DNA of 64,000 nucleotides from the NCBI GenBank assembly GCA_965219345.1, contig OZ244732.1, positions 736,001-800,000 on the forward strand, read 5' to 3'. The notes beneath the pieces were generated by a model. It was not told the origin of the DNA and searched no databases. It worked only from the letters and a program-made list of their open reading frames with translations. Positions 48,018 through 64,000 of this stretch are shown here, in pieces. Position 1 is the stretch's first letter, and every line of letters begins with the position of its first letter. This DNA is from Nitrosopumilus sp. GTDB taxonomy: Archaea > Thermoproteota > Nitrososphaeria > Nitrososphaerales > Nitrosopumilaceae. A program made the translations under genes and the position numbers.

Positions 48018-49232
48018 TTGGCTAGAACATTATTGCAGTGCAGAGAGTGTAAAAGAGAGTACGAACCTACTTTCAAGTATATTTGTGATGACTGTTTCGG
48101 ACCACTTGATGTAAGGTATGATTTTCCAACAGTTACCAGGGATACATTTTCTAATCGTGAGCAAACGTATTGGCGATATTTTGAATTACTCCCAATAGAA
48201 GACAAATCAAATATTGTAAGCATTGATGCAGGAATGACACCATTAACCAAAGCAGAAAAACTGGGTGAAAAACTTGGTTTGAAAAATCTTTACATCAAAA
48301 ATGATTCCGTTAATCCAACATTTTCATTTAAAGACAGACCTGCAGGTGTTGCAGTATCAAAAGCAAAGGAGTTTGGATTATCAGCTGTTGGTTGTGCATC
48401 CACTGGTAATTTGGCATCAGCTACTGCAGCTCATGCCGCAAAAGGCGGATTTCCATGTCATGTATTTGCTCCAAGTAACATCGAGATGGCAAAAATTGCA
48501 CAAGCATTATCGTATGGTGCAAACTACATTGCAGTTGATGGAACATATGACGATGCAAACAGAATTGCTGCACAAATAGGCGACAGTAAAGGAATTGGAA
48601 TCGTAAATATTAATATGCGTTCCCACTATGTTGAAGGCTCTAAAACTTTGGCATATGAAGTTGCAGAACAGCTTGACTGGCAGGTACCTGATCAACTAAT
48701 AGTTCCAGTAGGCAGTGGTGCAATGCTTAACGCAATTTGTAAGGGATTTGAAGAACTACAACAGGTATCGTTGTTAAATGATGTAACTGGCATGCACATG
48801 ATTGCAGCACAGCCGCACGGATGTGCTCCCATTGTTGATGCATTTAAGAAAAATTCCAAAGAAATTGTTCCAGTTGAATACCCTGATACTGTAGCAAAGA
48901 GCTTGGCAATAGGTGATCCTGGAGATGGAAGATATGTGTTAAAACGACTGGCACAATACAATGGATTTGCAGAAGAATGTAACGATAAAGAAATTTTAGA
49001 TGCTATACTACTTTTAGCAAGAACAGAAGGCATATTCACAGAGCCTGCAGGAGGCGTTTCCGTTGCTGTACTGCGAAAGATGGTAGAGCAAGGAAAGATT
49101 GACAAAAACGACAGAGTAGTGTGTTATGTTACTGGAAACGGACTCAAGGCAACCGAATCAATCATGGAAGTGTTACAAAAGCCAAAAGTAATGAAAGCAG
49201 ATATTGCAGAAATTTCGACGGTGGTAAACTAG
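48018..49232 (+). CDS. thrC: threonine synthase (PLP fold II)
   Basis: N-terminal Zn ribbon, NPTFSFKDR, CASTGN, EGSKT, VPVGSG, TEPAG, TGNGLK. Confidence 0.88.
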   Translation: MARTLLQCRECKREYEPTFKYICDDCFGPLDVRYDFPTVTRDTFSNREQTYWRYFELLPIEDKSNIVSIDAGMTPLTKAEKLGEKLGLKNLYIKNDSVNPTFSFKDRPAGVAVSKAKEFGLSAVGCASTGNLASATAAHAAKGGFPCHVFAPSNIEMAKIAQALSYGANYIAVDGTYDDANRIAAQIGDSKGIGIVNINMRSHYVEGSKTLAYEVAEQLDWQVPDQLIVPVGSGAMLNAICKGFEELQQVSLLNDVTGMHMIAAQPHGCAPIVDAFKKNSKEIVPVEYPDTVAKSLAIGDPGDGRYVLKRLAQYNGFAEECNDKEILDAILLLARTEGIFTEPAGGVSVAVLRKMVEQGKIDKNDRVVCYVTGNGLKATESIMEVLQKPKVMKADIAEISTVVN

Positions 49233-49234
49233 TA

Positions 49235-50575
49235 ATGGCAAACATCACATTTACAATTCCATCCGTGCTAAACCAGGGAGGCGGTGAGAAAAAGACTGAG
49301 ATCTCAGCTGATTCTCTTCACGATGCGTTTGCAAAGATATCTGAAGCAATGGGCGATGATTTCAAGCGCAGAGTTTTAGAAAATGACGAAACTCCACGAT
49401 CTTTGATTAACATTTACATCAACGGAAAAAATGCCAAGTTTACTAATGGTATGGAAACCGCCCTTGAAGACGGTGACGAAGTCTACATATTGCCAGCAGT
49501 GGCAGGTGGTTCTGAAGAACTGTCCAATAAGGAATTGGACAGATTCTCTAGACAAGTAATGCTGGAAGAGATTGGTTATCAGGGTCAACTGAAATTAAAG
49601 AATGCCAAAGTTTGCGTCGTTGGTACCGGCGGCCTTGGTAATCCAATTACTACGAGACTTGCCGCAATGGGCATTGGTACTTTGCGTATTGTTGATCGGG
49701 ATGTAATTGAATTATCCAATCTGCATAGACAGACAATGTTTGATGAAGATGATGTGGGACAAGTAAAAGTCGAAGTTGCCGCAAAGAAATTGCAAAAACT
49801 AAATCCTGATTGCAAGATAGAGGCACTGGCAGTATCAGTCAATGATTATACTGCACTGGAAGTAGTTGAGGGATGCGATGTCGTAGTTGATGCCCTAGAT
49901 AGTGTCAATGCAAGATATGCATTAAACAAGGCATGTGTAAAGTATGGAATTCCGTTTGTTACGGGCGCTGCAGTTGGGGTATCTGGGCAAATATTTACAA
50001 TACTTCCTGGAACCAGTGCATGCTATCACTGCATGTTTCCTGCATTAGATGAGGATGCAATGCCTACATGCAGCATTGAGGGAGTACATCCGTCCATACT
50101 GTCTGTCGTTGGCGGAATCGAGGTTGCCGAAGCAGTCAAAGTAATTCTTGGCAAAAAACCAAGTCTCTCTGAAAAAATATTACATATTGATATTGAAAGT
50201 CTTGACTTTGCAAGTACCCGAACTTTCAAAGCAGAGGAATGTCCGGTCTGTGGTTCCGGCAAATTAGAGCAAGTGGCAAAAGAAGAGCTGTTGTTAGAGG
50301 AACTATGTGGCAGAAATCGCGGAAAGAGAACGTTCTCCATAACACCTACTGCTACCTTTGATCTTGATGTCAATTCTGTAACCTGCGCTGCAAAAGAAAA
50401 GGGATTTTTAGTTGAGAATCAAAGTGACCTTGGATTATCACTGCGAACAAATGCGATGTCAGTTAGTTTCATGAAGAAAGGCTCTGCAGTTGTTGTTGGA
50501 CCAAAAGATGGGCAAGAAGCTATTTCACTATACAAAGAATTGTTAGGAAAAGAGACAATCAAAACAGCAAATTAG
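49235..50575 (+). CDS. MoaD/SAMP-like Ubl fused to ThiF/MoeB (E1-like) adenylyltransferase
   Basis: INIYINGK..GDEVYILPAVAGG then RFSRQV, GTGGLG, DRDVIELSNLHRQ, CYHC, CPVC. Confidence 0.9.
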   Translation: MANITFTIPSVLNQGGGEKKTEISADSLHDAFAKISEAMGDDFKRRVLENDETPRSLINIYINGKNAKFTNGMETALEDGDEVYILPAVAGGSEELSNKELDRFSRQVMLEEIGYQGQLKLKNAKVCVVGTGGLGNPITTRLAAMGIGTLRIVDRDVIELSNLHRQTMFDEDDVGQVKVEVAAKKLQKLNPDCKIEALAVSVNDYTALEVVEGCDVVVDALDSVNARYALNKACVKYGIPFVTGAAVGVSGQIFTILPGTSACYHCMFPALDEDAMPTCSIEGVHPSILSVVGGIEVAEAVKVILGKKPSLSEKILHIDIESLDFASTRTFKAEECPVCGSGKLEQVAKEELLLEELCGRNRGKRTFSITPTATFDLDVNSVTCAAKEKGFLVENQSDLGLSLRTNAMSVSFMKKGSAVVVGPKDGQEAISLYKELLGKETIKTAN

Positions 50576-61994: not shown

Positions 61995-62090
61995 TATCAT
62001 CAAATGATGTGGAAGTACTTTCCTTTGATAAACATAAAGTATCTCTACCCAAAGGAGATTTGAAGAAAGGTAACTGTTCACGTCATTTGA

Positions 62091-62534
62091 CCCCCCCGTC
62101 TAGACGTATTTTGCCATCTCTGCGAGGTGATCCAGCCCCGCGTTCTTCCACGTCGCAAAGCATGTGAAGATGTTGCCCATCGGGTCTGCAGTCTTCTCTG
62201 ACCGCAGCGCGCCGCGAATCTTCCTTATGCTGTTCAGCAGGACGGTGGGAGGCCTGCCTGACCTTGGGCCGTCCTGCAGGCCACCGGGTCCGCGGCTCTT
62301 GAACCTCTCAATCCACAGCCTGACGCACCTTGACGTAACGCCAAATACCTCCGCAACGTGGGAGACGGGGTCGCCCAGCTTGAGTACTGCGCGTACTGCA
62401 AGCATCCTGACCCGTGCCCTGAGATCCTTTTCTGCACCTATTGCGTCATCTAGCTCTTCTAGTCTGTCCATAGGACTCGTGATTCGTATGATCAATAAGC
62501 TTTGCTGTCCGATCAATTTATGCGGAAATTACTT
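62091..62534 (-). mobile_element. IS630-family remnant (HTH half of transposase)
   Basis: RARVRMLAV, VAEVFGVT..VRLWIERF, GPRSGRPP; GC-rich; DDE part absent. Confidence 0.8.
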
Positions 62535-62758
62535 TGGAGCGTCACTATGGGCTCGCACACTTCTTTTGGAGAAGATCTTAAAACTCACTTTAGGACGGCA
62601 AACCTTGGAGATCACTTATTTTGAACAGAGCCTTATTTTCGGGGAATAAGTATTCCTGATCCCAGGCATTGCTGTACGGAAACCGGTCAAACTATTGGAA
62701 AATCACATGGAATGTACAAGGATAGTACTGATCTGGCATTATACGGTATGCTTAAATA

Positions 62759-63049
62759 TTGGTCGCCAAACATACAGCTACGTCAAAACCACAAAACTTT
62801 ACAGTAACTTTTGTAATTCAGGGACAAGGGTTTTCGGTAGAGATAGATCCCAAACAACAAGTTATAGAAGGAGTTGTAAAGGCATTGCAACAGTCAGGTA
62901 ACTCGGGTGATGCAAATGAATGGAAAGTAAGAACCGAGAGTGGGCAAGAGCTATTTACAGACAAAAGTTTCGAAGAGCAAGAGATCAAGAGCACAACCAA
63001 ATTGTTTCTTAACAAAGGCCCCGGTCGTGGTGGAATTACCAATCCTTGA
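62759..63049 (+). CDS. ubiquitin-like protein (BilA/DUF2604-like) with GG followed by ITNP extension
   Basis: beta-grasp pattern, ALQQSGNSG...WKVRTESG, LFLNKGPGRGG|ITNP. Confidence 0.8.
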   Translation: MVAKHTATSKPQNFTVTFVIQGQGFSVEIDPKQQVIEGVVKALQQSGNSGDANEWKVRTESGQELFTDKSFEEQEIKSTTKLFLNKGPGRGGITNP

Positions 63050-63506
63050 ACCCGCAGTTTCAAAAATAAAATTTGAACAGGCAGTTAATGAGCTTAAATC
63101 AGTTCAGGAAACCTACAAAAAAGTTTGGAAGCTACGGCATATAAAATATCCTATAATCTTAATTGACATTTTATCGGAAAATAAAAACACAGGACTAACG
63201 CTTCTTCTGAATCTTGAAAATTGGGATTTTCTTCCCCCGAGTGCCACATTAATAGATAAAGACCTACGAAATAATCTGACTCCGGATCATGTACCTGAAT
63301 CATTTGATAATCCTCAGCACCCTGTTAAGCATATCGTTTTTAATCAGAACTTGAGACAAATCTGGTTTTGCAGCCCAGGTTTTTTTGAATATCATCAGTT
63401 CTATCCAGAAGACAGGTGGGAATTGATCAAAAAGACGGGTGAAGGAACTATAACTTGGATCGTTGAAAGAGCATGTAACTTAATTGACATACAGGGATTG
63501 GAATGA
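63030..63506 (+). CDS. prokaryotic E2-like protein (BilB-like)
   Basis: EPAVSKIKFE, NWDFLPPS, WFCSPGFFEYH..EDRW with candidate catalytic Cys; GTG start overlapping the Ubl gene. Confidence 0.75.
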   Translation: MELPILEPAVSKIKFEQAVNELKSVQETYKKVWKLRHIKYPIILIDILSENKNTGLTLLLNLENWDFLPPSATLIDKDLRNNLTPDHVPESFDNPQHPVKHIVFNQNLRQIWFCSPGFFEYHQFYPEDRWELIKKTGEGTITWIVERACNLIDIQGLE

Positions 63507-63976
63507 CGTCACTTGTAAATATAAAAAAAATAAATCTTTCAATCTGTGTGCTGGAATATACTTTCAATTTTCTTCAAGAATATGGACACGAGCATTTAGA
63601 GGCTCACGCCATTTGGGTGGGAAAGAAAACAGGCATAGTGTTTGACGTATTGGACGTGTGGTTTCCAGCTCAGATTAACAGTGCCACATCATATGAGGTC
63701 CCAGAGGAGGAAGAATTCAAGATTAATGTAGAGCTAAACAGACAAAAGTTAATCGCAATCGCCCAGATCCATACCCACCCCGATTCTGCATTCCATAGTA
63801 GCATTGATGACGAAGGTTCTGAACTAGTCCTTCCTGGTTCGCTCAGCATTGTAATACCGAACTTTGGTTTTATAAAACAAGATGATCTTTCATTATGGAA
63901 AGTATACCGGTACACAGGAAAATCTTGGGAACAACTATCTGACCAGGAAGTAGTTAAAATATGTCACCTGATTTAA
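63503..63976 (+). CDS. JAB/MPN+ deubiquitinase-like metalloprotease (BilC-like)
   Basis: E...QIHTHPDSAFHSSIDD JAMM motif, SIVIPNFG; ATGA overlap with the E2 gene. Confidence 0.88.
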   Translation: MTSLVNIKKINLSICVLEYTFNFLQEYGHEHLEAHAIWVGKKTGIVFDVLDVWFPAQINSATSYEVPEEEEFKINVELNRQKLIAIAQIHTHPDSAFHSSIDDEGSELVLPGSLSIVIPNFGFIKQDDLSLWKVYRYTGKSWEQLSDQEVVKICHLI

Positions 63977-64000
63977 ACTTCAACGATCAGTCAGTTCAGA
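63961..64000 (+). CDS. start of a downstream gene (predicted E1/BilD-like), runs off the window
   Basis: ATG at 63961 overlapping the JAB gene end, open frame MSPDLNFNDQSVQ; identity inferred only from operon context. Confidence 0.35.
   Translation, partial: MSPDLNFNDQSVQ

Follow-up and report, generated by a model that had tools for sequence, protein, structure and literature searches.

A putative type II Bil operon of a variant branch in a Nitrosopumilus genome, with an ACG codon at the conserved start of its ubiquitin-like gene

We analyzed a stretch of 64,000 nucleotides from Nitrosopumilus sp. (contig OZ244732.1, positions 736001-800000, + strand), hereafter the window, whose last 1.3 kb carries a putative Bil-like operon for the conjugation of a ubiquitin-like protein (Ubl). 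Open reading frame (ORF) calls place three overlapping + strand genes there, followed by the beginning of a fourth. The first gene (bilA-like; 62759-63049, + strand) encodes a Ubl of 96 aa when counted from a TTG codon; it matches Pfam DUF2604 and ends in KGPGRGG-ITNP. The second (bilB-like; 63027-63506, + strand; 159 aa from GTG) encodes a conjugating enzyme (E2) of the CEHH family that is matched by Pfam Metal_CEHH and PADLOC BilB, and the third (bilC-like; 63503-63976, + strand; 157 aa) encodes a JAB/JAMM metalloprotease with PDB and PADLOC matches to BilC. The fourth (bilD-like) starts at ATG 63961, runs to 64000 within the window on the + strand and encodes a multidomain activating enzyme (E1) matched by Pfam ThiF, PADLOC BilD and PDB BilD. 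The original prediction, made from the letters of the window, had described a Ubl whose GG is masked by ITNP, an E2-like protein with a Cys motif, a JAMM protease and a fourth ORF at 63961, and all these ORFs were recovered. It also proposed that a ThiF/E1 gene be sought nearby. When the genome sequence was read onward, the fourth gene was found to be this gene: it extends past the window, ends 1,484 bases beyond it at contig position 801484 (L002 1462-2985) and encodes a product of 507 aa (Pfam ThiF, 1.9e-13; PADLOC BilD, 1.4e-15). The operon is thus complete, in the order Ubl–E2–JAB–E1, and every related locus of sufficient span presents the identical four genes in the identical order. Each gene overlaps its neighbor, by 23 nt, 4 nt (ATGA) and 16 nt successively, which suggests coupled translation. 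A predicted TATA box (TTAAATA; 62752-62758, + strand), conserved in relatives, lies directly before the first gene and would be part of the operon promoter.

The Ubl is recognized by Pfam DUF2604 with an E-value of 2e-13, and its best real match among PDB sequences is BilA of Ensifer aridi (8tyx_A; 5e-4). A designed helical repeat protein marginally outscored BilA in this search, and low-complexity stretches alone account for its score. The AlphaFold2 model (pLDDT 83.2) presents a single β-grasp domain, as had been anticipated, and Foldseek returned BilA 8tyx_A as the top PDB match (E 2e-7; TM 0.88 on target), followed by ubiquitin, SUMO and the Caldiarchaeum ubiquitin (6fno_D). The segment KGPGRGG was invariant in 20/20 Ubl sequences, and the two terminal glycines are G91-G92 in the window copy. 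What follows these glycines is variable: across the 20 sequences, eight have a 4-aa ITNP-like tail, two a tail of 5 aa and one a tail of 9 aa, and the tail is absent in nine. Tails of one or two residues were found in two further loci. The GTG-GTG start of the E2 gene sits within the Arg-Gly-Gly codons of the Ubl gene, in the +1 frame, and the bases that code for the conserved E-L-P-I-L-E of E2 read I-T-N-P-stop in the Ubl frame. The ITNP tail and its conservation in close relatives can be attributed to this overlap with the E2 start; judged from the two reading frames, the origin of the tail as the other reading of the E2 start is a new point. In the relatives without a tail, the Ubl already ends in GG, and therefore JAB cannot be required for its maturation there.

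The E2 carries the motif C115-SPGFF-E121-Y-H123, in which C115 is the predicted catalytic Cys; its reading frame is open further 5', from 62940. The match to Metal_CEHH (7.8e-9) is above the cut-off and PADLOC BilB was matched at 7e-6. Using a profile built from 20 E2 homologues, the only real PDB match was BilB (8tyz_C; 6.1e-5, full length). The original prediction expected a UBC-type fold and the structural model bears this out: in a Foldseek search with the AlphaFold2 model (pLDDT 85.5), the top three matches were BilB chains (first 8tz0_C; E 3.5e-7 to 6.4e-5; TM 0.74-0.79 on target) and eukaryotic E2s came next, with E > 0.09. Residues C115, E121 and H123 are in register with C138, E144 and H146 of E. 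aridi. Not all four residues of the Cys-Glu-His-His set are present, however, the fourth His being replaced by Tyr, and another histidine (H102), 13 residues before the Cys, is invariant in the alignment of 20 E2 sequences.

We then searched 1.84 billion representatives exhaustively with the E2 profile, which yielded 92 members at E ≤ 1e-3 (36 at ≤ 1e-10 and 12 at ≤ 1e-30). Forty-five of these present the classic spacing, with His at +13, and 18 present the compact spacing of the window copy, 16 of which have Tyr; 17 have other spacings and 12 fall outside the motif pattern used. A His located 12-14 residues ahead of the Cys was found in 17/18 compact E2s and in 0/45 classic ones. In the model of the window E2, H102 and C115 flank strands 103-106 and 111-114, and the two residues may be neighbors in the fold. 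In a quick tree of 70 E2s, for which the motif columns were retained, all 42 classic members fell on one side of a fully supported branch. At the sequence level, the window E2 is a member of a second deep branch of the CEHH family, a compact one in which His151 gives way to Tyr and a His upstream of the Cys is invariant. The genome contains a single CEHH gene.

Two further observations were made on these E2s. The compact E2 domain occupies residues 2-158 of a 340-aa metagenome protein (P0101), which may be a fusion with a second domain. In addition, in five of eight distinct related loci no ATG, GTG or TTG occurs in the E2 frame from the preceding in-frame stop up to the conserved N-terminus (L-x-I-x-I-L-E/D): L004 5990-6010, L007 1604-1625, L009 358-380, L010 580-600 and L018 1478-1500. 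At these loci the frame is open in -1 from within the last codons of the Ubl gene, with ATA and ATT as the sole codons on offer. Translation of E2 there may use a non-canonical start codon, reinitiate once the Ubl stop has been passed or yield a Ubl-E2 fusion through a frameshift.

The two remaining enzymes retain their expected residues. The JAB protease has E33 and the series H90-T-H92-x6-S99-xx-D102. H90, H92, S99 and D102 are invariant in 10/10 sequences, those of Sinorhizobium and Natrinema included, and E33 is nearly invariant. Its best real match among PDB sequences was BilC (8tyx_B; 1.3e-14) and PADLOC BilC was matched at 8.6e-10. By analogy, the protease is predicted to trim ITNP after G92 and possibly also to strip conjugates. 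The E1 aligned with BilD (8tyz_A; 9.2e-31) over residues 96-504, and its C417 aligns with the catalytic C417 of E. aridi. Across 24 E1 sequences, again with Sinorhizobium and Natrinema, G205/G207/G210, D231, R242, D300 and the zinc cysteines 343, 346, 488 and 490 are invariant; C417 is nearly invariant in the same set and invariant in the 35-sequence clade alignment. These features of its sequence agree with the type II pattern of a multidomain E1 that adenylates through a ThiF domain and carries its catalytic Cys on an inserted loop. In the E1 tree, the window protein belongs to an 18-row clade (support 97/98, stem length 1.09) that stands apart from the NGR234 group. Among NCBIfam models, MoeB/ThiF models matched E1 weakly and all far under their cut-offs, UbaA reached 24.5 bits relative to a cut-off of 450, and there was no match for the Ubl, the E2 or the JAB protein.

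The start of the Ubl gene is the point at which the window copy departs from its relatives. The TATA box is conserved in the related loci L004/L016, L007/L008, L009 and L010; in these four distinct relatives TTAAATA lies exactly 21 nt ahead of the Ubl start; three of them start with ATG and one with GTG. In a fifth relative, a TTG start is accompanied by a TATA-like box. The window presents the same box and the same 21-nt spacing, yet has ACG (62780-62782) at the start, a base read as it stands in the assembly sequence alone. The original prediction took the Ubl ORF from 62759; the ORF is indeed present, but the start codon of the relatives corresponds to the ACG, and TTG 62759 abuts the TATA box and would fall upstream of the transcript. 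Genome-wide, TATA-like hexamers peak at -31 to -27 before first ATGs (107 relative to about 28 expected, with about 5-6 per background position; 1626 ORFs), and such mRNAs are therefore probably leaderless. At that spacing, the enrichment in the whole genome was 270 relative to 134 for ATG and 69 relative to 39 for GTG. In relatives, the Ubl gene start is apparently leaderless, as far as its sequence context tells. The ACG at the conserved start is a further new point: this strain may produce little or none of the tag protein, and the window copy may be crippled. Just 5' of the TATA box (62715-62751), and at the same place in L004, L007 and L009, we also observed a conserved …GGTAC… followed by a ATACGGTA-like stretch, which could serve as a transcription factor B recognition element (BRE) or as an operator bound by a regulator of these genes.

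The presence of an archaeal amoA gene on the same contig (1.2e-117) agrees with the earlier assignment of the host to ammonia-oxidising archaea. All named relatives of the operon also come from ammonia-oxidising archaea (a Nitrosopumilus sp. metagenome-assembled genome (MAG), Nitrososphaera sp. MAGs and a Cenarchaeum sponge symbiont), with the single exception of a 2.7-kb contig of 31% GC binned as "Alphaproteobacteria". The related Nitrosopumilus locus has a TATA-binding protein (TBP) gene 330 bp past E1. A survey for orthologues, which had been proposed with the original prediction, returned 0/400 other genomes sampled across the phylum with a single-protein query; with a profile query, 5/400 other genomes of the family were found, and 1/98 in the genus. 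Three of these five genomes possess all four genes, one has a decayed copy and one a very divergent copy, the last two in DNA of 67-70% GC. The decayed copy (L019, G436:C1:638093-641332; 67% GC) retains the C-terminal half of E2, lacks the Ubl and has E1 in two pieces. Sequence identity is at least 34% inside the clade and at most 28% outside it, and the type II operons of 12 rhizobial plasmids present 25-26% E1 identity. By these sequence comparisons, the operon branch is separate and rare, with a patchy distribution in the family.

The surroundings of the operon are rich in remnants. Upstream, in DNA of low GC-content (32-35%), lie a type II methyltransferase (1.6e-112), a restriction-enzyme fragment, a 90-aa methyltransferase fragment, DUF488 and an integrase fragment. 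The upstream boundary region (62100-62656) follows nearer the operon. It contains a GC-rich transposase fragment reduced to its helix-turn-helix (HTH) part (62100-62516, minus strand; 43-47% GC; Pfam HTH_23/28/29/32) and then an 89-nt repeat (62568-62656), of which the genome holds two other copies at 83% and 75% identity. Downstream are a DDE transposase and an insertion sequence (IS) remnant of 56% GC. The location among restriction–modification (R-M) genes and mobile debris was thus correctly described at the outset. The "IS6-type end" proposed at 62632 found no confirmation: 62000-62760 matches nothing else in the window, and the adjacent ORF is the HTH-only transposase fragment. A composite transposon was also considered and rejected, since 11 kb around the operon contained no convincing pair of flanking repeats, whether direct or inverted. 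Stretches of 47-56% GC with broken transposase-like frames occur in this 36% GC genome at L002 5300-6550 (contig 803800-805050) and at 62000-62650 of the window, and these stretches, which flank the operon region, resemble IS remnants of foreign origin. Also downstream, a 155-aa ORF (L002 4846-5316, minus strand) presents a partial match to PADLOC DarG (2.1e-8; residues 10-69 relative to 168-224 of 329) and no Pfam family above threshold. The second contig of the genome (41,585 bases, 35.9% GC) could be a plasmid or a virus. Overall, horizontal transfer probably brought the operon into a variable region populated by IS fragments and R-M remnants. It is distinct from the housekeeping E1 chemistry of the cell, as had been proposed: a separate ThiS-ThiF fusion lies at 49121-50575, with a far stronger ThiF match (1.4e-74) and a ThiS-like N-terminal part (2.7e-8).

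Taken together, we consider it probable (roughly 0.7) that this is a complete operon of the type II Bil kind, predicted to conjugate its Ubl to lysine residues of target proteins that likely belong to infecting viruses, and maybe weakened in this strain by the ACG start. Driven by the TATA box at 62752, a single transcript would begin on or close to the first codon of the Ubl gene, with coupled translation of the overlapping genes. By homology with the E. aridi enzymes, the JAB protease would cleave the Ubl after G92 and release ITNP, E1 would adenylate G92 and load the Ubl onto C417, and the Ubl would be handed to C115 of E2. E2 would then transfer it to target lysines without an E3 ligase, and BilC may also undo the conjugation. 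The antiviral role is proposed by analogy with the type I system and from the operon's patchy spread and genomic context. Several points weigh against this reading. The Ubl start is ACG where relatives have ATG, GTG or TTG; the sole canonical in-frame alternative, TTG 62759, adjoins the TATA box; and ACG codons across the genome present no TATA enrichment at the relevant spacing (16 relative to 16). The E2 lacks His151, Tyr126 occupying that position in both the HMMER and the MAFFT alignment. The GC-content of the operon (40.3%) is just slightly above that of the genome (36.0%), so composition does not prove transfer. A search of the viral contig collection for relatives of the E2 came back empty, a viral target is not known, and we know of no experiment on any archaeal member. 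Finally, type II operons are said in the preprint text only to "may participate" in defense (10.1101/2023.09.26.559546).

A substantial possibility, which we nevertheless hold to be less probable, is that the operon is a relic recently silenced in this strain. The leaderless ATG would have become ACG, so that the Ubl is not made and the coupled E2 may suffer, leaving no conjugation and three intact enzyme genes. The conserved position of the ACG, with the promoter spacing kept in four distinct relatives, is consistent with this, as are the genome-wide TATA peak at about -29 before ATGs, which ACG codons do not share, the fragmentation of the flanking IS, methyltransferase and restriction-enzyme genes, and the decayed relative L019 with its truncated E2, missing Ubl and split E1. 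Against it, none of the four frames is interrupted and the catalytic residues are all retained; moreover, GTG and TTG are tolerated in relatives, so that initiation there is not strictly AUG-dependent, and TTG 62759 would be usable by a transcript from further upstream. The ACG itself, as noted, is the reading of the assembly. Unlike silencing, a cellular role would leave conjugation at work, with the Ubl serving regulation or the targeting of proteins to proteolysis, as SAMP or Urm1 does, rather than antiviral defense. Archaeal Ubl conjugation is described as serving regulation and proteasome targeting in the parts of the literature covered here (PMC4895103, PMC4443979), defense by type II operons is not stated as shown in the sections covered of the preprint (10.1101/2023.09.26.559546), and the viral contig search gave neither a viral target nor a virus-borne copy. 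However, a presence in 5/400 genomes of the family and 1/98 of the genus is hard to square with housekeeping, the genome already has its ThiS-ThiF type E1, the operon sits among R-M remnants and IS fragments, and its homology is much closer to Bil than to the SAMP E1 (UbaA, 24.5 bits relative to 450). We therefore regard a cellular role as quite unlikely. Still less credible is a sulfur-carrier module of the ThiS/MoaD type, devoted to adenylation for cofactor or thiolation chemistry. The ThiF domain of E1 and its weak NCBIfam MoeB/ThiF matches, far under the cut-offs, point in that direction, but the operon also codes for a JAB protease and for an E2 whose Cys is conserved, the additional domains of Bil-type E1s and the loop with C417 are present in E1, and the nearest folds to the Ubl are BilA and ubiquitin; we disfavor this explanation strongly.

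The preferred reading of a type II Bil-kind operon can be carried further, in a form that we offer tentatively and consider somewhat improbable. The compact E2 branch, with its Cys-Glu-His-Tyr set and upstream His, could represent a third, largely archaeal Bil type with a rebuilt active site, whose substrates in ammonia-oxidising archaea would be the structural proteins of thaumarchaeal viruses. Roughly one member in two would make a Ubl that ends ready in GG and would translate E2 from an overlapping frame without a canonical start, through reinitiation or a frameshift. Ammonia-oxidising archaea are abundant in the ocean and their defenses against viruses are poorly known, and E2-dependent Ubl conjugation as immunity has, to our knowledge, been worked out in bacteria only. 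A conserved and complete cascade in these archaea would, if true, carry this form of immunity into a second domain of life and would bear on the origin of full ubiquitination cascades. The branch also constitutes a natural experiment on the E2 active site, in which a His presumed to assist catalysis is replaced by Tyr while another His is fixed upstream. With its ACG tag start, the window copy may show a Bil-type system in the course of loss, and cloning would have to begin from a relative or provide a start codon.

Several known systems share parts of this organization. The SAMP/UbaA and Caldiarchaeum ubiquitin systems also pair a ThiF-type E1 and a JAMM protease with a modifier that has a β-grasp fold and ends in GG. 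An E2 is absent from SAMP systems but present in the window operon, whose E1 is only remotely matched by the UbaA model. The Caldiarchaeum system uses a canonical UBC E2 and a RING E3. A closer arrangement was found in another archaeon, on plasmid unnamed4 of Natrinema zhouii (NZ_CP084885.1, 149342-152104; L014 1839-4601), where a small protein (86 aa), an E2-like protein (158 aa), an MPN protein and a ThiF protein are encoded in the same order and match PADLOC BilB (1e-5), BilC (1.8e-10) and BilD (1.2e-29). However, this cluster differs in that identity is limited to 24% over half of E1, on a very long branch, its E2 did not align over the Cys motif, and its scores are nearer to the type I models.

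The original prediction had labeled the operon Bil/ISG15-like. The Ubl-E2-deubiquitinase (DUB)-E1 cascade of the Bil type stands, but it is of the type II (CEHH/6C) kind rather than the ISG15-like type I, which has a two-domain Ubl. With the type I system of Collimonas the operon shares the four-component logic and the gene order, and Bil models were the top PADLOC matches for its E2, JAB and E1. It has one β-grasp domain in a Ubl of 96 aa, where type I has two. These matches to the type I PADLOC models are weak: the PADLOC run gave BilB 7e-6, BilC 8.6e-10, BilD 1.4e-15 and no BilA. A known type II operon scores alike: as a control, the one on pNGR234a of Sinorhizobium fredii NGR234 matched BilD at 1e-15 and BilC at 3.6e-15, with no BilB. 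The type I Ubl is described in the preprint text as two β-grasp domains (10.1101/2023.09.26.559546), and for the type I system of Collimonas sp. OK412 defense is stated, with the phage central tail fiber as the target (10.1101/2023.09.04.556158). In the literature examined, within the sections covered, type I is the only Bil type with defense and a target stated.

Literature searches and the supplement of Chambers et al. gave no thaumarchaeal Bil operon by title, abstract or table entry, supplements available only at bioRxiv and the final Nature version lying outside the scope of the search. The 162 operons of Supplementary Table 1 include one archaeon, Heimdallarchaeota LC_3, and no entry of Nitroso*, Thaumarch* or Cenarchaeum (10.1101/2023.09.26.559546). 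According to the text of the same preprint, type II BilABCD operons are the former CEHH/6C operons, in the order Ubl–CEHH/E2–DUB–E1; type II Ubls have single or tandem β-grasp domains, that of E. aridi being single, and near their end all of them keep a conserved Gly, after which come as many as nine variable residues that the DUB takes off; and Cys138 and His151 are the only CEHH residues common to types I and II, where His151 may act in catalysis (10.1101/2023.09.26.559546).

The closest known system is the type II operon of E. aridi TW10 (PDB 8tyx, 8tyy, 8tyz, 8tz0), in whose proteins (BilD, BilC, BilA and BilB) all four window proteins find their best real solved-structure match. The two share the gene order, a single β-grasp Ubl of the DUF2604 family whose conserved Gly precedes a short, removable tail, a CEHH E2 with Cys, Glu and His in register, a JAB protein with the same E33 and the same HxH-x6-S-xx-D spacing, and a multidomain E1 with four zinc cysteines and a catalytic Cys aligned at 417. 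However, the window host is an archaeon, identity is merely 22-28%, and the E1 clade of the window sits on a long supported stem (97/98, 1.09). At 159 aa, the window E2 is shorter than the rhizobial and E. aridi E2s (204-205 aa) and has neither their insertion of roughly 18 residues nor their C-terminal extension; relative to the E. aridi E2, it is two residues shorter between the His and Asp-x-Trp, has Tyr for His151 and has the invariant His 13 residues before the Cys. From these comparisons of sequence, we file the operon as working like a type II Bil system, yet as a variant branch of it and not a plain member.

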